From NCBI GenBank assembly GCA_965221955.1, contig CBDCTA010000023.1:1-46524 (forward strand): a stretch of 46,524 nucleotides of DNA. The letters are read 5' to 3'. Under the pieces are notes generated by a model that saw only the letters and a program-made list of their open reading frames with translations, had not been told where the DNA came from and did not search any database. Shown here one piece after another: positions 9,193 through 23,846 of this stretch. How positions within the stretch are numbered: position 1 is the stretch's first letter; each line of letters begins with the position of its first letter. The DNA is from Gammaproteobacteria bacterium. GTDB taxonomy: Bacteria > Pseudomonadota > Gammaproteobacteria > UBA4575. A program made the translations under genes and the position numbers.

Positions 9193-10110
9193 CTATCCTC
9201 TGGGATGGTGCTGTCGGTGTAATTCCTGCAATCTAGCCTGCGCGACGTGCGTATAGATCTGGGTGGTAGACAAATCACTATGCCCTAATAACATCTGCAC
9301 CACGCGCAAATCAGCTCCATGATTCAATAAATGCGTTGCAAATGCATGTCTCAGCGTGTGTGGTGAGAGGTGTTTAGTAATCCCTACATTCTTAGAGTGC
9401 TTTTTTATCAAATGCCAAAATGCTTGCCTTGTCATTGCAGCACCACGATTGGTGATGAACAACGCATCACATTGGCGATTATTTTTTAATAAATCTGCAC
9501 GCGCTTCGTTTATAAACTTAGAAATCCACTCGTTGGCCTGTTCACCAAATGGAATCAAGCGTTCTTTGTTCCCTTTTCCAATTACACGAATCACGCCGTG
9601 ATTTAAATTAACCTGACTTAAAGTTAAACCAATCAACTCACTAACTCGCAACCCGCATGCATAGAGCACTTCTAACATGGCTCGATCACGTACACCTTGC
9701 GCCTTATTAGTATTCGGTGCAGCAAGCAGACGCTCAACCTCTTCTTCGGTTAACGTTTCGGGCAAAGGGCGTCCGAGTTTTGGAAACTCGATTTGTGCAG
9801 ACGGATCTTTTTGCACTGCACCCTGGCGCACTAAATAACGATAAAAACGACGAATACTGGATAACAATCTTGCCGAAGTGCGCGGCATACTGCCTTGTTG
9901 CACTCGATAGGATAAATAATCTAATAAATGATCCCTACGTGCCTCAGTAATATTGACCGTCATCTTGGACAGCCACTTAGAAAGCCCAAGCAAATCGTTT
10001 CGATACGCGGATAATGTGTTTTCACTTAAACCGTGTTCAACCCAAAGCGTATCTAAAAATGCTTCGATTACGGGTTGATCAGATGGTAATGTAAATGAGG
10101 AATCACTCAT
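9193..10110 (-). CDS. xerD: Site-specific tyrosine recombinase XerD
   Basis: LSENTLSAYRNDL, RDRAMLEVLYACGLRVSEL, GKGNKER, SPHTLRHAFATHLLNHGADLRVVQMLLGHSDLSTTQIYTHV, HHPRG end. Confidence 0.96.
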   Translation of the reverse strand: MSDSSFTLPSDQPVIEAFLDTLWVEHGLSENTLSAYRNDLLGLSKWLSKMTVNITEARRDHLLDYLSYRVQQGSMPRTSARLLSSIRRFYRYLVRQGAVQKDPSAQIEFPKLGRPLPETLTEEEVERLLAAPNTNKAQGVRDRAMLEVLYACGLRVSELIGLTLSQVNLNHGVIRVIGKGNKERLIPFGEQANEWISKFINEARADLLKNNRQCDALFITNRGAAMTRQAFWHLIKKHSKNVGITKHLSPHTLRHAFATHLLNHGADLRVVQMLLGHSDLSTTQIYTHVAQARLQELHRQHHPRG

Positions 10111-10201: not shown

Positions 10202-10630
10202 ATGAAATCTACATCCACATCTAATATTCAACATGTTTCTTTATTAAGGCGCTTTGGTGCAATTTTGTATGATTTCTTTTTGTTAATTACGGTTCTATTC
10301 ATTGCATCTTTCTTAGTAGTCGTTCCCTTTAACCTTAAACCTGAAAATCCTTTTTTCTTTTTATATCAAGCGTATATCTTTGTTGTTGCATTTATTTTCT
10401 TTGCTTGGTTTTGGACCCACAACGGACAGACATTGGGCATGCGCACATGGAAAATACAATTAGTAAACGATGATGATTCAGCGATAAGTTGGGGCACTGC
10501 ACTGATTCGCTACTCTGTAGCAACACTTTCCTGGCTTGCACTAGGACTCGGCTTTCTTTGGAGCTTATGGGACAAACAACACCGAACTTGGCACGACATC
10601 GCTTCGAAAACGAAATTGGTTCGTACTTAA
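10202..10630 (+). CDS. RDD family membrane protein
   Basis: RRFGAILYD, GQTLGMRTW, R.WHDIASKT.LV motifs. Confidence 0.9.
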   Translation: MKSTSTSNIQHVSLLRRFGAILYDFFLLITVLFIASFLVVVPFNLKPENPFFFLYQAYIFVVAFIFFAWFWTHNGQTLGMRTWKIQLVNDDDSAISWGTALIRYSVATLSWLALGLGFLWSLWDKQHRTWHDIASKTKLVRT

Positions 10631-10650
10631 TTTAAATATTTGCTTCGACC

Positions 10651-10800
10651 ACCATGGATGGCGGAAGTGCAGAAATTGCACGGCTGCAAGGATGCGGGAG
10701 GTAGAGTAACGCAGGAGCAGTTGCCGAGGAGCAAATTTCTGTCGGCCAATTAGTGAGTACATGGAAGTACGAATAAGAGCTACAACAAGGATGTTGTATC
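10651..10800 (+). other. Cluster of GGA-loop hairpins (nested small repeat or CsrA/RsmA-binding RNA-like element)
   Basis: Eight GGA motifs in about 150 bp, several in short stems: ccATGGAtgg, gcAAGGAtgc, gcAGGAgc, gtacATGGAagtac, acaacAAGGAtgttgt. Confidence 0.55.
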
Positions 10801-10805
10801 AGATT
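10753..10805 (+). repeat. Left terminal inverted repeat (53 bp)
   Basis: gtgagtacatggaagtacgaataagagctacaacaaggatgttgtatcagatt; 42/53 identical by manual alignment to the reverse complement of 23323-23375. Confidence 0.85.
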
Positions 10806-10823
10806 AAAGTCAGTCTAAATTAA

Positions 10824-10853
10824 AATGTCCGCTTTCGGCCAAAAGCGGTCATT
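10824..10853. repeat. 30-bp palindromic site 1 (form A)
   Basis: aatgtccgcttt cggcca aaagcggtcatt. Confidence 0.93.
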
Positions 10854-12283: not shown

Positions 12284-12313
12284 AATGTCTGCTTTCGGCC
12301 AATAGCGGACATT
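12284..12313. repeat. Site 3 (form A)
   Basis: aatgtctgcttt cggcca atagcggacatt. Confidence 0.93.
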
Positions 12314-13292: not shown

Positions 13293-14459
13293 CTATAAAC
13301 TATTAGCTTGACGTATCGCGATACGTGTAAATATAGGTCCGATTAATTCAAAAAAGATTGTAGTGCTAATGACTAAAGATATCAGCACTTGTTTATGCTC
13401 TGGAAAATAGTTGGATGCAACTAGCGCCATACCAATGGCAACACCTGCCTGAGGTAATAAAGCAACTCCCATCCAATTTTTAACAGTTTGATCAGACTTG
13501 CTTAATTGCCCGCCAACTCTTGCACCGATGACTTTTCCTATGCTTCTACTAAGTATATATACGATTCCAATCAGTCCAATGTCTGCAATCATTTTTAATT
13601 CAAGTGTAGCCCCTGCCAATACAAAGAAAATTACCATAAACGGCCATTCAATATTCTCAATTTCATGAAAAGCGTAGTCGTGATGCTTAGCAAAATTTGC
13701 AACGATTGCACCCATTACAATTGAAGCAATTAGAAAAGATACATCAAGCCAAAGTGCCAACCCTCCACAGATAAATACCAGGCCAAGCGCTTCTGTTAAT
13801 ATAGGCTCACCAGGTTTCAGTCTTCCCGTTAAATAGGCAGCAGGAAATCCGAGCAAGACTCCTAGAATAACAGCTCCACCAATATCTTTTAATGCTATGA
13901 CAATTAATGGACTGTCTGAGATCTCTCCACTAATTGACGTGGCTACTGCAACCCCTAAACCAAATAATATTAGCGCCCATGCATCATCCAAAGCGACAAT
14001 TGAAATTAGTAAATTACTAAATGGACTTTTATCATTAGATTCCATTACTACATCTAACGTAGCTGCTGGAGCAGTTGCACTCGCAATACAACCTAGCAGT
14101 ATGGATAGCTCTATTGGCAAACCGAGCCACATAAGGCCTATGGTCACAATGACTACTGTGAATACAGCAGCGCTTATTGAGATGGTAAGAATATTTTTTA
14201 TTCCGTGCGTGAGAGATTCTCTAGTGAGCTTTCCTCCTATCAAAAAACCAACCATTAATAGAGTCATCTCAGCAATAATTTCAAATTGTTGAGTAAAAAT
14301 TGGTGGAATAATATTGAAAGCTTCCTTCCCAATTAAGATACCAAATAACAAAAGAAGCGTAACACGTGGTAAAAATGTTCGACGGCCAAGAGTACTTATT
14401 ACTTGCCCAAAAAGAAGAATACCACCAAGTGATAAAAGAAATTGGTAGGCTGATTCCAT
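13293..14459 (-). CDS. Cation:proton antiporter (CPA/Na+/H+ exchanger family)
   Basis: About 12 TM; ASATAPAAT, VALDDA, FFVLAGA, LLPQAGVAIG motifs. Confidence 0.88.
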   Translation of the reverse strand: MESAYQFLLSLGGILLFGQVISTLGRRTFLPRVTLLLLFGILIGKEAFNIIPPIFTQQFEIIAEMTLLMVGFLIGGKLTRESLTHGIKNILTISISAAVFTVVIVTIGLMWLGLPIELSILLGCIASATAPAATLDVVMESNDKSPFSNLLISIVALDDAWALILFGLGVAVATSISGEISDSPLIVIALKDIGGAVILGVLLGFPAAYLTGRLKPGEPILTEALGLVFICGGLALWLDVSFLIASIVMGAIVANFAKHHDYAFHEIENIEWPFMVIFFVLAGATLELKMIADIGLIGIVYILSRSIGKVIGARVGGQLSKSDQTVKNWMGVALLPQAGVAIGMALVASNYFPEHKQVLISLVISTTIFFELIGPIFTRIAIRQANSL

Positions 14460-14486: not shown

Positions 14487-14516
14487 AATGTCCGCTTAGG
14501 GCCGTTAGTGGTCATT
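14487..14516. repeat. Site 6 (form B)
   Basis: aatgtccgctta gggccg ttagtggtcatt. Confidence 0.88.
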
Positions 14517-14542
14517 TTGAAGCTTTGTTTTGAAGATTCCAA
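14514..14542 (-). promoter_or_regulatory. Putative sigma70-like linker promoter
   Basis: Minus strand TTGGAA-17 bp-CAAAAT. Confidence 0.4.
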
Positions 14543-14569
14543 CTTTGTTTCTCCTTAAATTATTTTAAT

Positions 14570-14599
14570 TATGTCCGCTTTCGGCCAATAGCGGACATT
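14570..14599. repeat. Site 7 (form A)
   Basis: tatgtccgcttt cggcca atagcggacatt. Confidence 0.95.
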
Positions 14600-14623
14600 T
14601 ATAAAACTAAACATTTATTCTTA

Positions 14624-14839
14624 TTATGGACGTTTTACACCATCACAATATTCATTAACTTTTGAAGTTAATCCTTGTATATCACATTTAGTTTCTAGAT
14701 TTTTTTCAAGTGAAATAATAAAAGGATACACAGTATCAATTTCATATTGAGGTGGACTACAGCCCATACACCAGTAATCATGTCTAAATTCAGCATTACC
14801 TTTATAAGATTCACGAAAATCGAAGTAGTTTTTGACTCC
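14624..14839 (-). pseudogene. 3' remnant of a cassette gene
   Basis: Open frame GVKNYFDFRESYKGNAEFRHDYWCMGCSPPQYEID...EYCDGVKRP* ending about 25 bp from site 7, blocked upstream by an in-frame TAA. Confidence 0.4.
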
Positions 14840-14972
14840 TTATATATACATACTAATACCTATGAATTACATCAGCTTTTTTATTCCAGTCAGTGTAAGT
14901 GGCCTCCCATCTTTTTCAATCGAATATGTAACTTCAGAGGTTGATAAAGATCAACTTTGACCTTACTTAAGG

Positions 14973-15776
14973 CTAACAGTTTGGCCTCTTGCCTTTTCCT
15001 CGTGCTTTTTTATAGGACAATAATGCCTGCGGCATGCGCGCATTTAAATCATTAATCCGAGATTGATTTGCTGGATGTGTGGACAGAAATTCAGGTGGTT
15101 GCTCACTACCTTGTTTAGACATGTTTTGCCACAATAAAACACTTTCACGAGGATCAAAACCTGCCATAGCCATATAGTCTAAACCCAAGATATCAGCTTC
15201 ACTTTCTTGCCCTCGCCCATAAGGCATCAATACGCCATATTGAGCACCTACACCAAGCAATCCCACTAAACGTTGTTTACCGGGTGTAGTTGCGCCTGCC
15301 ATAACTTCCACTAATTTTAAGCTTGCGCCTGTCGCATAAGCTGCAGATACACGTGCATTTGCATGTTCTGCAAGTACATGTGCTACCTCATGAGCAATAA
15401 CAGTAGCCAATTGATGTTGATTTTTTGTTACTTCCAATAATCCGGTATACACACCAATTTTGCCGCCCGGTAAAGCAAAAGCATTAACTGCCTTGTCTTG
15501 AAATACAATCACTTCCCATTGTGTATTTAGTCTTACTTCACGAGTAATTGCACTTGCTATACAACTCACATATCGATTTATTATTGCGTTTTTAGATTGT
15601 GGTGTTTTTTTCTTTAGATCTTCAAAAGCCGCAACGCCCATTTTATCCATTTGTTCTGCAGGGATAAGATGCAGTTGTGATCGACCAGTGGGCGAAGTCG
15701 CACAAGAATATATAGAAAGAATTAGTAAGAAAATTAATACAAGATATGTACTCAACGTACCTTTCATTACAAACAA
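14973..15776 (-). CDS. M48 family metallopeptidase (lipoprotein-like)
   Basis: Lipobox-like YSC, NAFALPGGKIGVYTGLL, AHEVAH (HExxH), ESEAD, FLSTHP. Confidence 0.92.
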   Translation of the reverse strand: MFVMKGTLSTYLVLIFLLILSIYSCATSPTGRSQLHLIPAEQMDKMGVAAFEDLKKKTPQSKNAIINRYVSCIASAITREVRLNTQWEVIVFQDKAVNAFALPGGKIGVYTGLLEVTKNQHQLATVIAHEVAHVLAEHANARVSAAYATGASLKLVEVMAGATTPGKQRLVGLLGVGAQYGVLMPYGRGQESEADILGLDYMAMAGFDPRESVLLWQNMSKQGSEQPPEFLSTHPANQSRINDLNARMPQALLSYKKARGKGKRPNC

Positions 15777-15777
15777 A

Positions 15778-16128
15778 TTAAGCGCTTAGTTTTTGAAATA
15801 CTTCGGCATGATATTTTAACCGTACATGCAGTTCTCTAGTTGGGTCCTCCAGGATATTACCAGTTAAAAACATTTCATCTTCATCATACTCACCTACTAA
15901 TTTGAGAATAAATTCCTCTAGTTTCCCAAATATTGGATTATATACACCATGATAGTGCTTTATATTAATAGTAGCATTGAAATTATTTCCCTTTAGATCA
16001 TAACTACCAACATAAAAATAGTTGTTATCACCCCCCAATATTTTCTTTTTCTCTAGAACGACAATTCCACCTCCTTCTGCGCTCATTTTTGAAACGAATT
16101 CTAGAGACCACAACTGCTCTAATGCCAT
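15778..16128 (-). CDS. GrlR-like small beta-barrel protein
   Basis: LWSLEF.S....GGGIVVL....ILGGD..YFY.GSY resembles the GrlR family pattern. Confidence 0.55.
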   Translation of the reverse strand: MALEQLWSLEFVSKMSAEGGGIVVLEKKKILGGDNNYFYVGSYDLKGNNFNATINIKHYHGVYNPIFGKLEEFILKLVGEYDEDEMFLTGNILEDPTRELHVRLKYHAEVFQKLSA

Positions 16129-16164
16129 TTTACAATTACCATGTTCACAATCATTGGTATCTAA

Positions 16165-16743
16165 CTAAGCGCTTTTAACTTCGATTGATCGCTTATTGCT
16201 TTTAGCCTCAATTGTTTTAGGTAGGGAAATATTTAGTACGCCCTTGGAATAGTTTGCATCAACTTTATTGTTATCCACACCGTTAGGCACACGAAATGTG
16301 CGTTGAAATGAGCCATAACTCCTTTCGCTTACGTGATAATTTTTCTTCTTTTCCTCACGCTCCGCTTTTTTCTCACCTTTTACAGTCAACGAATCATCAT
16401 TGAGAGACACTTCAATATCTTTTTCAGTCATGCCCGGCAATTCAACTGCTATCTCATAAGAATCATCACTCTCACTGACATCCACTCGTGGTGTTATGTC
16501 GAGTTTTGGCAACTTCAAATGACGTTCAAGATCTGCCATTGGATAGGTCCACCCTTTGCCAAATACTTTAGGTAAGCTTGGCCAATCTTCAGCAAAACGA
16601 TCAAAAATATTGTCCACTTCTTCACGCAATGTTACTAAAGGCGATATGACATCACCTTTTTTAGCAACAGACTTTCTAGATCTGGTCTTTCTCTTAGATG
16701 TTTTCTTCTTTTTTACAGGTACTTTTTTTGCTCTGCGCGCCAT
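16165..16743 (-). CDS. Small heat-shock protein (Hsp20/alpha-crystallin)
   Basis: PRVDVSE, VELPGM, LTVKGEK, ERSYGSFQRTF, A.YSKGVLNISLPK; start MARRAKK at 16743 with GGAG RBS. Confidence 0.92.
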   Translation of the reverse strand: MARRAKKVPVKKKKTSKRKTRSRKSVAKKGDVISPLVTLREEVDNIFDRFAEDWPSLPKVFGKGWTYPMADLERHLKLPKLDITPRVDVSESDDSYEIAVELPGMTEKDIEVSLNDDSLTVKGEKKAEREEKKKNYHVSERSYGSFQRTFRVPNGVDNNKVDANYSKGVLNISLPKTIEAKSNKRSIEVKSA

Positions 16744-16814
16744 TACTGCTTCTCCTTTTGATTGTTTGTAACTAATAATTTTGTCGTAATTTAGGGTTAC
16801 AGCATTGATCTTAG

Positions 16815-17060
16815 TCAAATTAATACATTGTTTTTCCATAAAACGAATAAATGACAATTTAATAACATTTCCATCATTGGCACGCACACCTTAGATATTT
16901 CTGATTTTTCATTTTCAGGTGGAGTAACACTAGGTGGAAGTGCGGGTATTACATTCATTGGAGATATTTCTACAGGTACAGAATCCGAGCTTGGTTGATC
17001 TGTGAAATAAACTTCCCCATTAGGCCTACATGTCTTTACAATTGATGCGCACAGGCGCAA
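16815..17060 (-). pseudogene. DUF4124-like fragment
   Basis: KTCRPNGEVYFTDQP followed by a Pro-rich linker; no signal peptide, TTG start, appears truncated. Confidence 0.4.
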
Positions 17061-17120
17061 TGACGCGACACACCGAGTGAACCTGTCTGAGAAAATCTTT
17101 AGTATTTTTGAAATTTTGAA

Positions 17121-17150
17121 AATGTCCGCTTTCGGCCAATAGCGGACATT
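17121..17150. repeat. Site 8 (form A, consensus)
   Basis: aatgtccgcttt cggcca atagcggacatt. Confidence 0.96.
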
Positions 17151-17596
17151 TACTTTTTCTGAATGTCATGTTCCAAGATAGCCAAAATGGCAGCTTCTAC
17201 TCTCGAGTCATCGTTCATATGAAATATATTATTCTTTTCTCTATGCTCAGTTATTTCAATGACACCATCAACATCATAGACATTATATGAAGGACGATCA
17301 TTCTTTCTTCCTAAGGACAAATCATCAAGATAATATGGACGTGTACCAATTCTTTGCCCGGTTACTTGATTAACTTTCTTATTGTTTAAATATATTTTGA
17401 ATACTGCTTCTGTGAGATAGTAATCAACTGATACGCTAATTTTATCGCGATCATTTTCTTCAGCTATTTCATCAAAGAACTTTGGTACTCGAGAATCATC
17501 AGCTAAATCGAAACTAGACTCGGGGAAACACCCAAATAGCGTAATAACCAAGAAGATTATTAAATATATTTTAATATTTAATTTTATATAAAACAC
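17150..17596 (-). CDS. Putative lipoprotein
   Basis: Hydrophobic N-terminus with LFGC lipobox; fills the interval between sites 8 and 9. Confidence 0.75.
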   Translation of the reverse strand: MFYIKLNIKIYLIIFLVITLFGCFPESSFDLADDSRVPKFFDEIAEENDRDKISVSVDYYLTEAVFKIYLNNKKVNQVTGQRIGTRPYYLDDLSLGRKNDRPSYNVYDVDGVIEITEHREKNNIFHMNDDSRVEAAILAILEHDIQKK

Positions 17597-17615
17597 TATA
17601 AGTATGACTTAAAGA

Positions 17616-17645
17616 AATGTCCGCTTTGGGTCGTTAGCAGTCATT
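17616..17645. repeat. Site 9 (form B, consensus)
   Basis: aatgtccgcttt gggtcg ttagcagtcatt. Confidence 0.96.
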
Positions 17646-18210
17646 CAATAGATTTATTGCCGTAATATGGCACTAAGCATTCATTTTTCATTGCATCTAA
17701 TGCATAGGAAAGGCCTTTGAGGCTGTAAGAGTACTCATGTAACCCGTTTTTATCACGATATCTAACATTTATAATTTTTGCATTTATCATTTCTTTAATG
17801 AGCCATCTTGATCTAACTGTGCTGATTAAATTTGGTGAGTAATCATTAACAAACCATTCTAAATTTAGTGGCGCTTGTTCATCTAGCTGAATAACCATCG
17901 GCACAACTTCTGGATCTATTAATTCAATAGGTTGGCCATTATTTAAATGTATATCATATCCTTCGTGTTGACTTATTCCTGAACTACAATAAATTTGCAG
18001 TATTGGGAGATTATTTGGATTCTTAAGTTGTGGTACTGCAATCATCGCCTGATTAGGGAAAGCAGGATTTAGCATTAATGACCAATCAGTTTGCGTCGCC
18101 CAATCATTTTCAAGACCAGGATCAACAGGTTGATTATTTTGATTAGTCTCAGTGCTTGCAGAACATTGGAATGCACACATAAAAAGAACAAAAAATAATA
18201 GTATTTTCAT
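17641..18210 (-). CDS. Secreted hypothetical protein
   Basis: Signal peptide MKILLFFVLFMCAFQCSA; TGA stop lies inside site 9. Confidence 0.78.
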   Translation of the reverse strand: MKILLFFVLFMCAFQCSASTETNQNNQPVDPGLENDWATQTDWSLMLNPAFPNQAMIAVPQLKNPNNLPILQIYCSSGISQHEGYDIHLNNGQPIELIDPEVVPMVIQLDEQAPLNLEWFVNDYSPNLISTVRSRWLIKEMINAKIINVRYRDKNGLHEYSYSLKGLSYALDAMKNECLVPYYGNKSIE

Positions 18211-18227
18211 ATATCCCTTAATTAATT

Positions 18228-18257
18228 TATGTCCGCTTTGGGTCGTTAGCAGTCATT
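18228..18257. repeat. Site 10 (form B)
   Basis: tatgtccgcttt gggtcg ttagcagtcatt. Confidence 0.95.
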
Positions 18258-18527
18258 CTAGACTTTGACTGTTTTTGCAATGTCATAGTATTTACCAGTC
18301 AAGTCCGTGCTCAATTTTCCAGTTTCAACCGCATTTAAAAATTCTTCTGGAAACTTATCTTTACCAAGAATAAATAATTGACTATTAATATCCTGCAAAT
18401 ATCTATCTCTAACTTTTTCAATTTTATTCTCATCATGCTCCATCCATGCGGCTTTTTTATCGTTATAGAAACATAATTCGTTGAGTAGCTTCATTAGCTT
18501 TCTTTTCTTGAAATAGCTAATAATCAT
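18258..18527 (-). CDS. Hypothetical protein
   Basis: 89-aa ORF exactly filling the interval between sites 10 and 11. Confidence 0.7.
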   Translation of the reverse strand: MIISYFKKRKLMKLLNELCFYNDKKAAWMEHDENKIEKVRDRYLQDINSQLFILGKDKFPEEFLNAVETGKLSTDLTGKYYDIAKTVKV

Positions 18528-18537
18528 TTATCAAAGG

Positions 18538-18567
18538 AATGTCCACTTTGGGTCGTTAGCAGTCATA
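18538..18567. repeat. Site 11 (form B)
   Basis: aatgtccacttt gggtcg ttagcagtcata. Confidence 0.92.
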
Positions 18568-18593
18568 TTAAGTTTATGTTTCATTGATTCCAA
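18565..18593 (-). promoter_or_regulatory. Putative sigma70-like linker promoter
   Basis: TTGGAA-17 bp-TAATAT. Confidence 0.45.
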
Positions 18594-18596
18594 CCT

Positions 18597-18626
18597 TATG
18601 TCTCCTTTCGGCAAATAGCAGTCATT
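18597..18626. repeat. Site 12 (degenerate form A)
   Basis: tatgtctccttt cggcaa atagcagtcatt. Confidence 0.82.
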
Positions 18627-19095
18627 CAGTAAGTGAAACTTTTTCACCATTTTTGAATAAGATATCAGTGCTTCCATCTCTATTTCGATCAAGCATTTCT
18701 AGTACGTCGCCTTGTTCATTCTCGACAACATTTACTATTTGCTCAAAATACCCATCCCCATCTATGTCACTAACAGAGATAGCATCACCATCTGAGAATC
18801 TCACTACGACATAGCTATCAGACAATGTAACCGAGTAGTCTTCATCGTAGATATAAAGCATTTTAGGGCCACCAGCTTTCTTTGGCCCATATAATTTCAA
18901 ATCGCTAATTTTGGTAGTGATCAAATCACTCAGTTGATAATCGAGGTGCATAGAACTTGAAAGCTCTTTTTTATTACGCTCGCTTAACTCTTGCCAGTTA
19001 ACATCATTTTGATTTTTACCATATATCCAGCCACCAACCGCAGATATACCTGAAACTGAAACTAAAACTAGTGCAATTATATTGATTGTTTTCAT
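18622..19095 (-). CDS. Membrane-anchored/secreted hypothetical protein with DxDGDG-type motifs
   Basis: N-terminal TM; DIDGDG and DRNRDG motifs; stop inside site 12. Confidence 0.72.
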   Translation of the reverse strand: MKTINIIALVLVSVSGISAVGGWIYGKNQNDVNWQELSERNKKELSSSMHLDYQLSDLITTKISDLKLYGPKKAGGPKMLYIYDEDYSVTLSDSYVVVRFSDGDAISVSDIDGDGYFEQIVNVVENEQGDVLEMLDRNRDGSTDILFKNGEKVSLTE

Positions 19096-19104
19096 TTGAT
19101 CTGC

Positions 19105-19134
19105 GATGTCCGCTTTGGGTCGTAAGCAGACATT
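19105..19134. repeat. Site 13 (form B)
   Basis: gatgtccgcttt gggtcg taagcagacatt. Confidence 0.93.
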
Positions 19135-19153
19135 TTAGAACAATATGTATGAA

Positions 19154-19284
19154 ATTTTCAGAAGCGTCTGAAACTTCTCACGCCTAATTAACGCAGTAAC
19201 TTACGATGCTTTCCTACCTCACACTGTGACATTAGGATACTGCAATGAATAACAATGAACTTCATTGTGACACATTTTGGTCAC
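19154..19284 (+). repeat. 131-bp imperfect direct repeat, copy 1
   Basis: attttcaga..taattaacgcagtaacttacgatgctttcctac..acttcattgtgacacattttggtcac; aligns to 20460-20590. Confidence 0.75.
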
Positions 19285-19319
19285 TGCAACCCATTGTCTA
19301 AGAACACTTCACTCAAAAG

Positions 19320-20312
19320 TTAATAGCCATTATTTAACATCCAGTTATTCAATGGGAGTACCAATACTTTTAAATGCTCGTGATTGACTGTTTTAGCAAG
19401 TACTTTTTCAGGATAAGGATAGACGGCCCATGCACGATCAAAGTACTCTTGAGCTTCTTCTTTGTTTGGTGAACTTTCTAAAAGTTTCGCCCACTTAACA
19501 AACAAAGCACAACCAAGTGTAAAACGTGCACCACCATAGTTCATGCGTGTTAATGCTTCCTCAGCATATTCAATTGCTCCATCAATGTCTTGGTAAGTAA
19601 AAAGTAAAAAATTTGCATAATTTCCCCATATCCATGCAGAGTTAGGATTATTCTCAAGCTGATTTCTATAAGCTGTATCAGTACTATCATAATCACCCAT
19701 CTTCCAATATGTGCTTGTAATACCTTCTAAAGCTCCTGCATAAGCTTTTTCATTATTAGTCCCTTTTTCAATAACATTTTGGTAGCGTTCTAATGCTTCA
19801 GAATATTTCCCTTGTATATCTAAAAGCCGTGCCCAGTTAATTTCCAGCCAAGGTGATTCTGTGCCAATACGCTCTGCACTCGTTAGTGATAAGTCTGCAT
19901 AACCAAACTCTTTCATCGCAATATAAACGGATGCTAATAAAACATATGCGTCTGCGTAATGAGGCTCGATTTCTAATGCCCTTTTGACAGATTTTTCAGC
20001 AGCGAGCAGGCTCTCTTCTCTATAATTATCATAATTAATATAGCCACTCATTAAGTGGAGCCTTCCATACTCTCTATGTACAGGCGCAAATTGCTCGTCT
20101 TTAGCAAGAATTACTTCGAGCATAATATACGCCTTTTGGAGATCCTCTCTCCTTCCAGTGTAAGAATTTATAAGTATTCGCGCAGCATCATAGCTTTCAA
20201 ATAATTCAGGACTTTTTTCTCGATATTTCTGATCGATTGGGGAATTCCAAAATTCAGCACTTGCTGAAGTGACGCATAGAATTAATAGTAATACTAAGAA
20301 TTTACCAGCCAT
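19320..20312 (-). CDS. Secreted tetratricopeptide-repeat protein
   Basis: Signal peptide; repeated A...Y..ALE..P..A.A patterns. Confidence 0.82.
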   Translation of the reverse strand: MAGKFLVLLLILCVTSASAEFWNSPIDQKYREKSPELFESYDAARILINSYTGRREDLQKAYIMLEVILAKDEQFAPVHREYGRLHLMSGYINYDNYREESLLAAEKSVKRALEIEPHYADAYVLLASVYIAMKEFGYADLSLTSAERIGTESPWLEINWARLLDIQGKYSEALERYQNVIEKGTNNEKAYAGALEGITSTYWKMGDYDSTDTAYRNQLENNPNSAWIWGNYANFLLFTYQDIDGAIEYAEEALTRMNYGGARFTLGCALFVKWAKLLESSPNKEEAQEYFDRAWAVYPYPEKVLAKTVNHEHLKVLVLPLNNWMLNNGY

Positions 20313-20459
20313 AAATACTCCAACCTAAATTAGGCTACTAGAAGAATAATAAGTCCAACTCATAAAGATTTAAAGATTTGTATAAAAAAGTTTAAAAATA
20401 CGACTGGTGGATGAATTACAGATAAGCGTTTTCAAAGTTTATATAAACGAGATACGAGG

Positions 20460-20590
20460 ATTTTCAGATTTTTCTAGAAATACTCACATTTAATTAACAC
20501 AGTGACTTACGATGTTTCCCTACTCACAACTGAGTCAATAACGCACAATAATGAGTATGAGTGTACTTCAGTGTGACACAATTTTGGCAC
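20460..20590 (+). repeat. 131-bp imperfect direct repeat, copy 2
   Basis: attttcaga..taattaacacagtgacttacgatgtttccctac..acttcagtgtgacacaattttggcac. Confidence 0.75.
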
Positions 20591-20597
20591 AACTTTA

Positions 20598-20627
20598 AAT
20601 ATCCGCTTTCGGCCAATAGTGGTCATT
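20598..20627. repeat. Site 14 (form A)
   Basis: aatatccgcttt cggcca atagtggtcatt. Confidence 0.9.
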
Positions 20628-20631
20628 ACGT

Positions 20632-21009
20632 TTATGCGAGTTTCTTTGCTACAAATGGAGACAATAATAATGACATGCCTAACAATAAATACTTGAATAT
20701 TGGTGTACCAATTAACTCAAAGCCTTTATGCCCAATAAAAGGTAACAACAGAACACTACCAAGCATCCAGATAGCAAAAGCTAACGTGAAACAAGCTAAT
20801 ATAATCTTAAACACTCTAAAATTACCATTCTTCTTGTTTGAGCCTTTGCTAAGCAATACACCAATTATAGCTATGCCCATCAAAACAATGCCAAATGTAG
20901 AATATAATAAGACATTTACTTGTTCTGGATATTTAAAATTTAGGAACGAAATCATTAACAGATAAGAAACTGCCAATGCAGCAATAAATATCAGATTTCT
21001 TTTATTCAT
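20632..21009 (-). CDS. Membrane protein (about 4 TM)
   Basis: Hydrophobic ORF filling the interval between sites 14 and 15. Confidence 0.75.
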   Translation of the reverse strand: MNKRNLIFIAALAVSYLLMISFLNFKYPEQVNVLLYSTFGIVLMGIAIIGVLLSKGSNKKNGNFRVFKIILACFTLAFAIWMLGSVLLLPFIGHKGFELIGTPIFKYLLLGMSLLLSPFVAKKLA

Positions 21010-21020
21010 TACAGAAACAT

Positions 21021-21050
21021 AATGTCCGCTTTGGGTCGTTAGCAGTCATT
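21021..21050. repeat. Site 15 (form B, consensus)
   Basis: aatgtccgcttt gggtcg ttagcagtcatt. Confidence 0.96.
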
Positions 21051-21076
21051 TTAAATTTGTAGCTCATTGAATCCAA
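21048..21076 (-). promoter_or_regulatory. Putative sigma70-like linker promoter
   Basis: TTGGAT-17 bp-TAAAAT; last 3 nt of the -10 lie in site 15. Confidence 0.5.
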
Positions 21077-21093
21077 CCATATTTGTTTTGAAT

Positions 21094-21123
21094 TATGTCT
21101 GCTTTCGGCCAATAGCGGACGTG
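21094..21123. repeat. Site 16 (form A)
   Basis: tatgtctgcttt cggcca atagcggacgtg. Confidence 0.9.
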
Positions 21124-21154
21124 TAATACTCTCCTTTAATTGGCACTATTAATT

Positions 21155-21397
21155 TTACAAATTTTTGTTTTTTCGTGAACCCTCAAACAAAATAAGTAAT
21201 GCCATAGCCGCCCAAATAATGGTTAATAAGATAAATGCTCCACGGTTAGAATTGAAGCATGCTATATCATCACTTCTCCAATTGGGTAAGCTAATGCAAA
21301 AATCATTGTAATCGTCATAGGAAAGAAAAATAACAAAAACGTACACTGCTACAGCGAAAAGAAATCCTATAATATTTCTTTTCTTAGGAATCTTCAT
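21155..21397 (-). CDS. Small membrane protein (2 TM, loop with two Cys)
   Basis: 80-aa ORF between sites 16 and 17. Confidence 0.7.
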   Translation of the reverse strand: MKIPKKRNIIGFLFAVAVYVFVIFLSYDDYNDFCISLPNWRSDDIACFNSNRGAFILLTIIWAAMALLILFEGSRKNKNL

Positions 21398-21415
21398 AAT
21401 CTATAAATCTTTCAA

Positions 21416-21445
21416 AATGTCCGCTTTGGGTCGATAGCAGTCATT
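21416..21445. repeat. Site 17 (form B)
   Basis: aatgtccgcttt gggtcg atagcagtcatt. Confidence 0.95.
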
Positions 21446-21471
21446 TTGAACGTTTGTTTTGAAGTTTCCAA
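21443..21471 (-). promoter_or_regulatory. Putative sigma70-like linker promoter
   Basis: TTGGAA-17 bp-CAAAAT. Confidence 0.4.
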
Positions 21472-21498
21472 CCTGACTTCCCCTAAATTGATCTTAAT

Positions 21499-21528
21499 TT
21501 TGTCCGCTTTCGGCCAACAGCGGACATT
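21499..21528. repeat. Site 18 (form A)
   Basis: tttgtccgcttt cggcca acagcggacatt. Confidence 0.92.
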
Positions 21529-21534
21529 CATGCG

Positions 21535-21894
21535 TCATTGATCAGATGTGTTTGCAGGACGAAACTCTTCAAAAATCTGCTTGTAGTGTTTGGCCTTATC
21601 TTCGTTTATCTCAAAATACCAACAACCTTTTAAATAACAAAGCGCGAGTACATGAGCAGCCCTATAGTTATTTAAATCTCCTGCTTTAATCAGCCATTCA
21701 CGTGCTTCATCCATCTCATCTATTGTAGGAGGTGTTTGGCTATCTACACGTTCTGCAACACCTAACCACAAATTATACATCGCTTCTGAATTGCCTTGAT
21801 TAGCAAGATTAATTAAATGCTTTGTATCTTTATCATCATGAGAATTACTCGCTAATGGAATACAAATTAAAATTAGAAATAAAATAAATTTCAT
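21535..21894 (-). CDS. Secreted Sel1-like repeat protein
   Basis: Signal peptide; LANQGNSEAMYNL, AREWLIKAG, LALCYLKG, KAKHY. Confidence 0.75.
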   Translation of the reverse strand: MKFILFLILICIPLASNSHDDKDTKHLINLANQGNSEAMYNLWLGVAERVDSQTPPTIDEMDEAREWLIKAGDLNNYRAAHVLALCYLKGCWYFEINEDKAKHYKQIFEEFRPANTSDQ

Positions 21895-21914
21895 CTAACT
21901 AATCTAAAATTACT

Positions 21915-21944
21915 AATGTCCGCTTTGGGTCGTAAGTGGTCATT
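21915..21944. repeat. Site 19 (form B)
   Basis: aatgtccgcttt gggtcg taagtggtcatt. Confidence 0.93.
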
Positions 21945-21970
21945 TTAAGTTTGAAGTTTATTGATTCCAA
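21942..21970 (-). promoter_or_regulatory. Putative sigma70-like linker promoter
   Basis: TTGGAA-17 bp-TAAAAT. Confidence 0.5.
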
Positions 21971-21987
21971 CACTTTGCACCCCTAAA

Positions 21988-22017
21988 TTTGTCTGCTTTC
22001 GGCCAATAGCGGACATT
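21988..22017. repeat. Site 20 (form A)
   Basis: tttgtctgcttt cggcca atagcggacatt. Confidence 0.92.
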
Positions 22018-22022
22018 CACAG

Positions 22023-22487
22023 CTAGAGGACAATATCTTTCTCCATCACGGATACTGAATGACCTTGCCACTCGGTACGTTCTCGCACAACCCAATTAAG
22101 TTTAGAATAAAATTCTTCTGAATCGGGCGTGTAAAGAAATAATTTGCTCACTCCTAATCGTGCTGCTTTATCCTCAATAGCAAAAACAAGCTTTTTACCA
22201 ACCCCCTTTTTTCTATGCTTTGTATCTACATACAAACCCGCCAACCATGGACTTAGGTTTGGGCGTGATCCAAGATCATTTGTCTTTAAAGCAATCATCC
22301 CTATTGCTTTATCGTTTTCAAATGCTACTAAACAAAGTGGTATTTTCTCTTTATTGGATCTCTCCAGCATTAATTGCTCGACATCTGAAAGTGTTCTTTC
22401 AGGATGAAGATTTGACCATTCGTTATATGACCAGTTAGCAAGAGTTGGAATGACGTTTTTATGATCTGCTAAGTACTCTATTTCCAT
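22023..22487 (-). CDS. GNAT family N-acetyltransferase
   Basis: PWLAGLYVDTKHRKKGVGKKL (acetyl-CoA motif A), LFLYT...FYSKLNW. Confidence 0.9.
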   Translation of the reverse strand: MEIEYLADHKNVIPTLANWSYNEWSNLHPERTLSDVEQLMLERSNKEKIPLCLVAFENDKAIGMIALKTNDLGSRPNLSPWLAGLYVDTKHRKKGVGKKLVFAIEDKAARLGVSKLFLYTPDSEEFYSKLNWVVRERTEWQGHSVSVMEKDIVL

Positions 22488-22530
22488 TGCTTGTTATTGA
22501 AACAATTATATGTGTAAAAACTGTCAGTTG

Positions 22531-22560
22531 AATGTCCGCTTTGGGTCGTTAGCGGTCATT
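22531..22560. repeat. Site 21 (form B)
   Basis: aatgtccgcttt gggtcg ttagcggtcatt. Confidence 0.95.
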
Positions 22561-22612
22561 AAACTATGTTGTTTTGAGATTTCCAACCTGATTTCCCTTT
22601 AATGAATTAAAT

Positions 22613-22642
22613 TATGTCAGCTTTCAGTCAATAGCGGACATT
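22613..22642. repeat. Site 22 (form A variant)
   Basis: tatgtcagcttt cagtca atagcggacatt. Confidence 0.85.
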
Positions 22643-22653
22643 ATTGGATTACT

Positions 22654-22863
22654 CTAGTCGCTAATTTTTTGCTTCTTCCTAAAATACCATTCAGCAACAA
22701 ACCAGATAGCAACTCCAATAATTACTAAATAAAGATTATCGAGAAATCCCGCATAAGTTCTTACAGATTCACAGCCAGAATCATCGCATACAATTTCACT
22801 AGATTTAATGAATACTCCTATACAGATAAGAATAAATATTAGTAATCTGCTTAGAACTTTCAT
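22654..22863 (-). CDS. Small membrane protein (2 TM, CDDSGC loop)
   Basis: 69-aa ORF filling the interval between sites 22 and 23. Confidence 0.68.
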   Translation of the reverse strand: MKVLSRLLIFILICIGVFIKSSEIVCDDSGCESVRTYAGFLDNLYLVIIGVAIWFVAEWYFRKKQKISD

Positions 22864-22880
22864 TACTTTAAAGTTTGTTC

Positions 22881-22910
22881 AATGTCCGCCTTGGGTCGTT
22901 AGCAGACATT
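22881..22910. repeat. Site 23 (form B)
   Basis: aatgtccgcctt gggtcg ttagcagacatt. Confidence 0.93.
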
Positions 22911-22936
22911 TTAAGTTTATAGATCATTGAATCCAA
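22908..22936 (-). promoter_or_regulatory. Putative sigma70-like linker promoter
   Basis: TTGGAT-17 bp-TAAAAT. Confidence 0.5.
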
Positions 22937-22953
22937 CACATTGTGTCCATTGT

Positions 22954-22983
22954 TTTATCCGCTTACGACCATAAGCGGACATC
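22954..22983. repeat. Site 24 (A orientation, hybrid core)
   Basis: tttatccgctta cgacca taagcggacatc. Confidence 0.85.
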
Positions 22984-22994
22984 TGTTATTAGTT

Positions 22995-23264
22995 TTATTG
23001 ATTGAAAATCTTATAGCAAACATAGGCTGCTATTAACCATATATAGAAAGCTAATAAAGAGACGTTATAAATCTTACGTGCTTTTTGGCCTGTTTCATTT
23101 AATGCATCGGTTTTAAAAATTGGCAAAATATTAATGACAGCTAAACCTTTTTGTTCATCGACATTATTTAAAACAGTCAGGTAAGCACTGAAATATGAAA
23201 CAGCGATAATTATTAATGAAATAGCAAATAGTCCTATTAATATCGTTGAAATTAAATCAATCAT
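22995..23264 (-). CDS. Small membrane protein (2 TM)
   Basis: 89-aa ORF filling the interval between sites 24 and 25. Confidence 0.68.
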   Translation of the reverse strand: MIDLISTILIGLFAISLIIIAVSYFSAYLTVLNNVDEQKGLAVINILPIFKTDALNETGQKARKIYNVSLLAFYIWLIAAYVCYKIFNQ

Positions 23265-23274
23265 AGATTAGATA

Positions 23275-23304
23275 AATGTCCGCTTTGGGTCGATAGCAGT
23301 CATT
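23275..23304. repeat. Site 25 (form B)
   Basis: aatgtccgcttt gggtcg atagcagtcatt. Confidence 0.95.
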
Positions 23305-23322
23305 CTATTAAAAGAAATATTG

Positions 23323-23375
23323 AATCTGAAGCAACCTCCTTGTTACATCTCATGTTCGCCCATCCATGTACTCAC
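23323..23375 (-). repeat. Right terminal inverted repeat (53 bp)
   Basis: Reverse complement gtgagtacatggatgggcgaacatgagatgtaacaaggaggttgcttcagatt matches 10753-10805. Confidence 0.85.
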
Positions 23376-23398
23376 ACTTTGGGTCGTTAGCTATCATT
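23369..23398. repeat. Site 26 (form B, left arm truncated by the terminal repeat)
   Basis: (tactca)cacttt gggtcg ttagctatcatt, followed by a linker giving TTGGTG-17 bp-TAAAAT on the minus strand. Confidence 0.75.
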
Positions 23399-23501
23399 TT
23401 ATAAAAGTAACTTAAATCCACCAACATACCTATTTTAATTCCACCTAACTTTAATTTGTTCGCGCCATCTAGACGCGACTCATATTCGTATATCCTTATA
23501 C

Positions 23502-23846
23502 TCACGCACTATCCAAGCGCTTACCAAGTAACAAAGCCCTAGGGTCTCCATTCGTCTGATAAGTCGCATACAAAATATAGAGAAACCCGAACATTCCACC
23601 TAGAAAGATACTTAAAAAACCAAATATATAACTCTTAGGAGTAAAGCCTTCACGCCATGCGATCCAAGTTGCTAACAAAAATAGATGAATTAAAAAATCA
23701 ACATTGAATTGTGAACGCCAGTTTAGATCAAGAATGTCGCCAAAAAATACGCTTGGCCAATTGACACCATTTGCTGTTAATACAATGAATGTAATTACAA
23801 AGATAACCACTGATGAAAATATTAAAAACAATCTAAATAACGCCAT
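23502..23846 (-). CDS. Small integral membrane protein
   Basis: 114 aa, about 3 TM, directly downstream of lptG. Confidence 0.75.
   Translation of the reverse strand: MALFRLFLIFSSVVIFVITFIVLTANGVNWPSVFFGDILDLNWRSQFNVDFLIHLFLLATWIAWREGFTPKSYIFGFLSIFLGGMFGFLYILYATYQTNGDPRALLLGKRLDSA

Follow-up and report, generated by a model that had tools for sequence, protein, structure and literature searches.

The small genes of one array in a draft gammaproteobacterial genome are separated by short palindromic sites, and where two of these sites, B and A, stand close together, the linker between them carries a nearly invariant box, TCCAAC, at a constant distance from B. The array lies on contig CBDCTA010000023.1 of assembly GCA_965221955.1, whose 46,524 nucleotides (nt) were analysed over their full length and are referred to here as the window. 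We consider the box to be a putative internal protein-recognition element of a mosaic repeat of REP/BIME/NIME kind, and an asymmetric extension of the B site, with a probability of roughly 0.45. The anatomy of the box, its conservation profile and its distribution are observed, whereas its reading by a protein is what we infer from them. A previous reading of the window, made from its sequence only, had interpreted the same linkers as portable promoter modules, each delivering a promoter to the next gene.

Anatomy and conservation of the B-linker-A units

The intergenic separators are two related 28-bp near-palindromes, A (ATGTCCGCTTTCGGCCAATAGCGGACAT) and B (ATGTCCGCTTTGGGTCGTTAGCAGTCAT). When up to three mismatches were allowed, the window yielded 10 matches to A and 10 matches to B, all of them on the plus strand, where none are expected. 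About 177 A/B sites were found in the genome, spread over many of its 29 contigs and including 31 doublets. Both sites consist of 9-bp arms around a 10-nt centre and begin with ATGTC; the arms start with AT and contain TGTC, which is paired. A and B have their centres in direct rather than inverted order, and B is able to pair with A in the structure predicted by alifold. Being short and palindromic, present in many intergenic copies and often arranged as doublets, the sites resemble repetitive extragenic palindromic (REP) sequences.

We propose a single composite intergenic repeat, B-L-(R)-A, of which the linkers would form the interior. With A and B of 28 nt each and a linker of 31, 45 or 55 nt, such a unit would measure 87, 101 or 111 bp. 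L would be the T-rich portion, variable over linker positions 0-18 and closing in the near-invariant box at positions 19-28, and R would be the variable remainder, 3, 17 or 27 nt long, that leads up to A. The units probably belong to a mosaic family of palindromic repeats that comprises A, B, L/R and two hairpin elements, X and Y. This family appears to fill the intergenic spaces in arrays of small co-oriented accessory genes, both here and in related genomes.

The sequence-only reading had placed TCCAAC 21 nt after B in all seven short linkers of the window, and ACCAAC at the same offset after a further site, its site 26. Both observations were borne out: TCCAAC is at the same place in 7 of 7 linkers, and site 26 ends at 23397 and is followed by ACCAAC at 23420-23425. 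The offset is 22 nt with the 28-bp B used here, and 21 nt with the 29-bp B of that reading. The hexamer TCCAAC is found 30 times in the window, against 20.4 expected, and hence the signal is its fixed position rather than its count. At the level of the genome, 27 of the 31 B-linker-A units have an exact TCCAAC at offset 22, and the other four differ from it by one letter at that position.

It had been proposed to check whether homologous arrays conserve the spacing, and the spacing is indeed kept in arrays of other genomes. Related genomes of the same family provided 58 distinct units with linkers of 55 (31 units), 45 (18), 31 (4), 54 (4) and 56 nt (1). The box is exact in 46 of them, carries one mismatch in six and is shifted by one base in two, and the last four have other linkers. 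In more distant genomes, sampled as loci with an exact 21-mer of B, 22 of 41 units have the exact box and five have it with one mismatch. The remaining units show a one-base shift, belong to other linker families, or have linkers of 3-19 nt.

To describe the conservation profile, 83 units of this linker family were aligned on the end of B. The conserved block comprises 10 nt, G-W-W-TCCAAC-C, at linker positions 19-28. Its mean pairwise identity is 0.857, compared with 0.888 for B, 0.866 for A and a random expectation of 0.26. Outside the block the identity is 0.53 over the T-rich, variable positions 0-18, and 0.53-0.56 over the distal part up to A. Column by column, the most frequent letters reach 89% (G19), 98% (T22, C23 and C24), 100% (A25), 98% (A26 and C27) and 88% (C28). 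Because the copies are homologous, the signal that goes beyond chance is one of constraint.

The box is tied to B. Its distance to B is constant, 22 nt, whereas its distance to A is 3, ~17 or ~27 nt. Of 70 extended boxes in the genome, 25 are beside B; the other 45 copies compare with ~41 expected by composition, and lie in unrelated, apparently mostly coding sequence. B-L also occurs in combination with X in place of A, usually with CCCAAC at the box offset, so that the association with B persists when A is absent. From the box distances, the genomic distribution and these B-L-X joins we conclude that the linker is an appendage of B, and not the free, portable module that had been envisaged. 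When 2.7 kb of the array was compared at the DNA level with 41 genomes of the family, nearly all the listed matches were B-L-A units of ~100-115 nt with 73-96% identity. A single gene was among the listed matches, a GNAT gene with 83% identity in relative G022, where it lies between an A-like site and a degenerate B. Since the search returned almost only units, the conserved entity is the B-L-A unit and not the cassettes.

Competing readings of the box

In the reading that we favour, A, B and the box would all be maintained by the same agent, which could be either an architectural protein of the host or a factor of recombination or mobilisation. One agent shared by B and the box would explain why the box is conserved to the level of the palindromes, why it keeps a fixed distance to B and a variable one to A, and why it was found only next to B. 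No conserved secondary structure is predicted in the linker, as the alifold structure joins B to A and keeps the linker unpaired; recognition as a sequence is therefore favoured over recognition as a structure. Outward promoter activity would be a plausible secondary function, comparable with that of the Correia elements (see below). Several observations weigh against a recognition element. Clustering of 1034 array-adjacent open reading frames (ORFs) from many genomes produced no recurrent recombinase or DNA-binding candidate. The B-A pairs of more distant taxa carry quite different linkers. About half of the junctions consist of a single A or B site without the box, which means that the box is not required for a site to exist. 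Finally, the box has the geometry of a promoter: a TTG lies at the optimal 17 nt from a hexamer with A at position 2 and T at position 6 in 67 of the 83 units, and an ORF is faced in 32 of 41 cases. By our rough estimate an arbitrary conserved box would match promoter geometry ~5-8% of the time.

The alternative that L and the edge of B form an outward sigma-70-type promoter for the gene behind B, and that this is the selected function, is judged from sequence to be possible but rather unlikely. On the gene strand the block reads GGTTGGAWWC in the 83 units, with TTGGAA (58) or TTGGAT (17) in 75 of them, and the constant 22-nt offset, which is kept in other genomes, sets a 17-nt spacer. The most frequent -10-like hexamers are TAAAAT (28 units), CAAAAT (24), TTTAAT (13), TAATAT (6) and GAAAAT (5). 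Those listed earlier for the window are confirmed, namely TAAAAT four times (site 26 included), CAAAAT twice, and TAATAT and TTTAAT once each. The proposal that the hexamer is completed by the site also stands, except that a 28-bp B supplies its last two bases rather than three. The direction is right as well, for 32 of 41 B-L sites have an ORF of at least 50 aa in the proper orientation within 120 nt, at distances of 11-44 nt in the seven window units. The match to the consensus is another matter. Out of 12 positions (TTGACA plus TATAAT), the units match 6 (1 unit), 7 (10), 8 (42), 9 (28) or 10 (2), with a median of 8. The best other alignment in each unit of ~100 nt, on either strand, also has a median of 8, and the proposed one is strictly the best in 16 of 83. 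The scan threshold of 9/12 is reached by 30 of the 83 units, and one of the seven window linkers was listed; the array as a whole has 35 promoter-like sites, against 49 +/- 8.5 in shuffled sequences. The conservation, too, goes further than a promoter requires. Outside the hexamer, two upstream G (98% and 88%, coding strand) and a C two positions downstream (89%) are conserved, and within it the non-consensus G and A are ~98% invariant, although a -35 box needs neither these letters nor the flanks. The A at position 2 of the -10-like hexamer is missing in 16 of 83 units (13 TTTAAT and 3 others). A B site that lacks the linker is as likely to precede an ORF (31 of 42). A cassette that is 86% identical between contigs C5 and C26 has an upstream B-L-A in one of them; in the other, a bare B directly adjoins the next gene. 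Two of 41 units face the 3′ end of a convergent ORF, and seven of 41 face no clear ORF. A transcript starting ~7 nt after the hexamer would begin in the first arm of B, and would thus probably lack the B hairpin. In sum, the geometry, spacing and direction claimed for the promoter were right, but the match to the consensus is weak and the conservation is not specific to a promoter, and the evidence, which supports the claim in part, does not single out a promoter. Since a TTG in the box is followed, after 17 nt, by an A-rich hexamer whose end lies in B, weak outward transcription may start from many copies, and that such transcription would be detectable is, judging from the sequence, quite possible, though short of an even chance.

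The other three explanations have less in their favour. It is improbable that the box is functionless, either a relic that decays slowly after a recent burst of copying or a stretch homogenised by gene conversion. The copies are homologous and fall into few subfamilies, and the spacer T residues at positions 8, 10 and 14, which have no obvious role, are also ~90% conserved; but the flanking 19 nt and R are at ~53% identity against 86-98% for the box, in several genera, and neither age nor conversion by itself would be expected to produce such a contrast inside 55 nt. Very improbable, in our judgement, is a crossover site of cassette recombination comparable to the core of integrons, with GTTGGAW on the coding strand and cassettes running from box to box, starting with L-B and ending with A-R. 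It would account for the various combinations of L and R halves, which meet at TCCAAC(C), one L type being found with R of 27, 17 or 3 nt, and for the differences between the arrays of two haplotypes of the locus (contigs C14 and C23, the latter being the window), which have their breakpoints at repeats. GTTGGAT would fit the integron core consensus, and GTTGGAA would nearly do so. Yet those breakpoints fall in or at the 28-bp sites and not at the box, an extra C14 cassette lies between two A sites, and the homology of common cassettes stops at the outer edges of A or B. In addition, half of the junctions lack the box, a complementary inverse-core partner was not seen near it, no attC-like fold is predicted, and an integron integrase was not found in this genome or in the complete genus genomes G001, G010 and G014. 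Equally little credit is given to a box acting in RNA, in which GGGA and GUUGGA, 10-14 nt apart in read-through transcripts, would be bound by a CsrA-type regulator or serve in processing. CsrA binds GGA in hairpin loops, and a second conserved TCC(C) is indeed present 9-13 nt past the box (positions 36-38), while the adjacent X elements are covarying hairpins with GGA in their loops on the complementary strand. Against this, the box is not displayed by any conserved hairpin, the B hairpin separates the motifs from the next start codon, 60-90 nt downstream of them, and Rfam gave no match.

The array, its cassettes and the candidate enzymes

The host genome is a 2.69-Mb draft of 29 contigs with 38.6% G+C, a completeness of 96.6% and a contamination of 4.3%; the window is its contig C23. 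The array covers 12.5 kb. On one side it is flanked by xerD (9193-10110, minus strand) and a gene of the RDD family (10202-10630), and on the other by a 114-aa ORF and lptG/lptF. Its genes are small, all on the minus strand, and encode hypothetical and membrane proteins, an OsmC-like protein, a Na+/H+ exchanger, an M48 peptidase, Hsp20, a TPR protein and a GNAT protein. In both haplotypes xerD, followed by dsbC, lies ~700 bp from the first site of the array; the order xerD-dsbC is that of E. coli. Many other arrays sit on contigs without xerD, and its proximity is therefore treated as a coincidence. A sequence of ~130 nt, distinct from the A/B/L/X repeats, is present in two gapped direct copies (19154-19284 and 20460-20590) that bracket the TPR gene (19320-20312).

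All seven composite units of the window read B-linker-A on the plus strand. Unit 1 (14488-14598) consists of B at 14488-14515, a 55-nt linker at 14516-14570 with TCCAAC at 14538-14543, and A at 14571-14598; its putative promoter would point leftwards into the gene at 13293-14459, of the Na+/H+ exchanger family. Unit 2 (18539-18625) is the short form, with B at 18539-18566 and a 31-nt linker at 18567-18597 (TCCAAC at 18589-18594), followed by an A-like site (18598-18625) that combines an A-type centre with a B-type right arm; the next gene is at 18258-18527. Unit 3 (21022-21122) has B at 21022-21049, a 45-nt linker with TCCAAC at 21072-21077, and A at 21095-21122, next to the gene at 20632-21009. 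In unit 4 (21417-21527), B (21417-21444) and A (21500-21527) enclose a 55-nt linker with TCCAAC at 21467-21472; the next gene occupies 21155-21397, and a copy of the unit with 96% identity is found at C22:40090-40201. Unit 5 (21916-22016; B 21916-21943, A 21989-22016) carries TCCAAC at 21966-21971 in a 45-nt linker, precedes the gene at 21535-21894, and is the sole window linker listed by the promoter scan (TTGGAA-17-TAAAAT, 9/12). The linker of unit 6 (22532-22641; B 22532-22559, A 22614-22641) is 54 nt long, with TCCAAC at 22582-22587; here the next gene (22023-22487) encodes a GNAT acetyltransferase, and the -10-like hexamer is TTTAAT, without A at position 2. Unit 7 (22882-22982) comprises B at 22882-22909, a 45-nt linker with TCCAAC at 22932-22937 and a degenerate A at 22955-22982; the next ORF, of 69 aa, is at 22654-22863.

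Both ends of the array are marked by X. At the right end, on the plus strand, a full B (23276-23303) has an X element directly after it, the two covering 23276-23377. Next to it is site 26, a B-L-X unit at 23378-23505 on the plus strand, in which the right part of B and a linker-like stretch with ACCAAC are followed by X in place of A. The left end (10640-10852, minus strand) is located downstream of the RDD-family gene and contains A at 10825-10852, X on the minus strand at ~10735-10810, and a Y-type insert at ~10640-10735. The X copies of the window (23304-23377 and 23440-23505 on the plus strand, ~10735-10810 on the minus strand) thus point outwards at the two ends. X is present in ~46 copies in the genome, often after a B site or an inverted A site. 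It is made of two hairpins separated by a conserved CTCATATTCGC-like stretch, and its loops read TCC(C/A/T), or GGA on the other strand. Its stems covary: in anchored pair counts of hairpin 2, pair 3 is AT in 12 copies, GC in 8 and CG in 2, and pair 4 is CG in 13 and TA in 8. A search of X against Rfam gave no match. Y is ~100 nt long and contains several TCC-containing hairpins. Besides the copy at the left end of the array, it is found at C22:41243-41370, where its insertion splits a B site precisely at the centre, between GGG and TCG. This position argues that the site centre is a target for insertion or exchange.

Contig C14 (1-19227) represents a second haplotype of the locus (window 1-27587), with flanks that are 99-99.5% identical. 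Its array measures 4 kb, compared with 12.5 kb in the window, and contains different genes, with breakpoints at the terminal B and at the first A. One extra C14 cassette lies between two A sites, and the polymorphisms that these have in common locate the exchange to the interval from position 19 to position 25 of A. By eye this cassette consists of an HxlR-like regulator and a divergent ORF. In the A site at C14:5857-5884 the 10-nt centre is inverted relative to the window copy at 12285-12312. A cassette common to contigs C5 and C11 is 97% identical, and its homology stops at the outer edges of its two A sites. Other array cassettes have homologues scattered singly in other genomes, with 65-87% identity, some with sites and some without. 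Since haplotype breakpoints and the edges of cassette homology fall at the sites and not at the box, the 28-bp sites are the boundaries of strain-variable units.

Hybrid sites, in which an A-type centre is combined with a B-type right arm or vice versa, occur elsewhere in the genome as well as in unit 2. All four right-arm variants are found with both types of centre, a pattern that exchange between A and B would be expected to give; the association between arm variants and A/B centres was tabulated, and was too mixed to place a crossover.

A/B sites are present in 27 of 41 relatives, including 14 of 14 genomes of the genus. The exact 21-mer of B was found in at least 108 DNA stretches from many bacterial groups. 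Their record labels name gammaproteobacterial metagenome-assembled genomes, Woeseiaceae, Thiotrichales, Alphaproteobacteria, Nitrospina, Lysobacter and Halomonadaceae, among others, a reach far wider than is usual for species-specific REPs. In plasmids neither the B-L-A unit nor B-X had a match, and in viral contigs there were 17 single matches to a 16-mer of B. Among sequencing runs, no RNA run was listed as containing the array, and the DNA contigs of four runs showed only short-sided joints at the repeats, with no usable junction. Rfam returned nothing at the gathering threshold in the window, and one chance-level match (E 0.28) in the array. In the literature, 13-14-nt pieces of the A or B site appeared in no paper, and searches on Xer and cassettes turned up only papers on dif modules and integrons.

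Four tyrosine recombinase genes were identified in the genome: xerD in both haplotypes, a second Xer-type gene, which we take to be a putative xerC, and an integrase gene with a 437-aa frame. A putative integrase gene is at the start of contig C29. The one serine recombinase is in a prophage, beside terminase and methylase genes. In this 96.6%-complete genome there was no match to Y1_Tnp, IS110, rve, DDE_Tnp_1 or Transposase_31. The RAYT family (PF01797, Y1_Tnp), without a match here, is found in one of 14 genus genomes and four of 24 family genomes, and its presence is unrelated to the number of sites. The integron integrase (TIGR02249) is above the cut-off in six of 41 relatives, and is not above it in this genome, in the complete site-rich genomes G001, G010, G014 and G019, or in 12 of the 14 genomes of the genus. 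Relative G013, the sole genus genome stated to have an integron integrase above the cut-off, is also the sole one with almost no A/B sites (1 match). This single case hints at a complementary distribution of integron integrase and sites; G015 has both. The clusters of array-adjacent ORFs, named by eye, were MBL-fold, GGDEF-EAL, helicase-nuclease, UbiB/E/J and cytochrome c proteins. With matches to the integron integrase and to Y1_Tnp being few among carriers of the sites, and no recurrent recombinase found by the arrays, the system is neither an integron nor a RAYT-driven REP family.

Relation to known repeats and cassette systems

The nearest enterobacterial counterpart is BIME-1/RIP (bacterial interspersed mosaic element; repetitive IHF-binding palindromic element, where IHF is integration host factor), in which two related palindromes are likewise separated by a short, partly conserved linker, and which is also intergenic, found at gene ends, present in many copies and single or paired. 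The BIME linker is a site for a host factor; in our family only the linkers of the CATTGAT type resemble an IHF site, by eye. Our units differ by their 28-bp palindromes with a 10-nt centre, the direct order of the centres, the absence of a GTAG tag and of any RAYT found, and their location in arrays of variable small genes. Correia repeat enclosed elements (CREE) of Neisseria are miniature inverted-repeat transposable elements with terminal inverted repeats, a TA target duplication and outward promoters demonstrated by experiment. Like our units, they are intergenic repeats of ~100-150 bp with terminal repeats and a conserved core. Unlike in CREE, the ends are here self-palindromic, occur also singly and bound cassettes, and inspection of 31 units revealed no duplicated flanks. 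According to PMC2649163, an outward promoter can arise from CREE, with a hexamer that the edge of the element completes. This is the closest precedent for the promoter idea.

Families of palindromic repeats that "apparently lack a dedicated transposase" are described for several phyla by Di Nocera et al. 2013 (PMC3733652), and some transposase-less repeats, such as dRS3 of Neisseria, cluster in mosaic intergenic regions with other families. As a mosaic of A, B, L, R, X and Y, our family is similar to those Neisseria regions and to the enterobacterial BIMEs. In the description of that source, REPs tagged with CGTC or TGTC have a terminal tag, an 8-9-bp stem starting with AT, a 4-5-nt loop and a CCA tail. 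Compared with that description, our sites are similar in their ATGTC start and in 9-bp arms that begin with AT, and differ in having a 10-nt centre and a paired TGTC instead of a 4-5-nt loop and an unpaired tag.

Integron arrays share with the present ones the small, co-oriented genes of mostly unknown function, the imperfect palindromic separators of 60-140 bp, and a content that varies between close genomes. They differ in that here many arrays are found per genome, single 28-bp sites suffice at half of the junctions, and the site sequence is, unlike attC, highly conserved across taxa. The box fits the integron core or inverse-core consensus in 6-7 of 7 letters. An attC reading was rejected, as there is no complementary partner near the box and alifold leaves the linker open. 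The pdif modules of Acinetobacter plasmids are similar in their 28-bp bounding sites, since ours can be parsed as 11-6-11, and in genes that move as site-bounded units; in contrast to them, site orientation is here uniform within an array rather than alternating, and there were no plasmid matches. A Xer/dif reading was also rejected: the arms of A and B share nothing with the dif-like 28-mer of the genome (C4:59827), which has a full XerD-type arm.

A broader view would combine the parts into an integrase-independent gene-cassette system of marine Gammaproteobacteria, in which a junction promoter is overlapped by a B-palindrome operator, captured genes are individually expressed and jointly controlled by a site-binding protein, and the sites are exchange points between strains; as a whole we regard it as unlikely. 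If the promoter is real, a small promoter unit at each junction, as opposed to the single Pc of integrons, would solve the expression of captured genes in a different way. If the box is a recognition element, it would be the best handle on the factor that maintains the repeat family. Under either reading the fixed box offers a simple search pattern for units of this family, which sets the limits of strain-variable gene cassettes with neither an integron integrase nor a RAYT.

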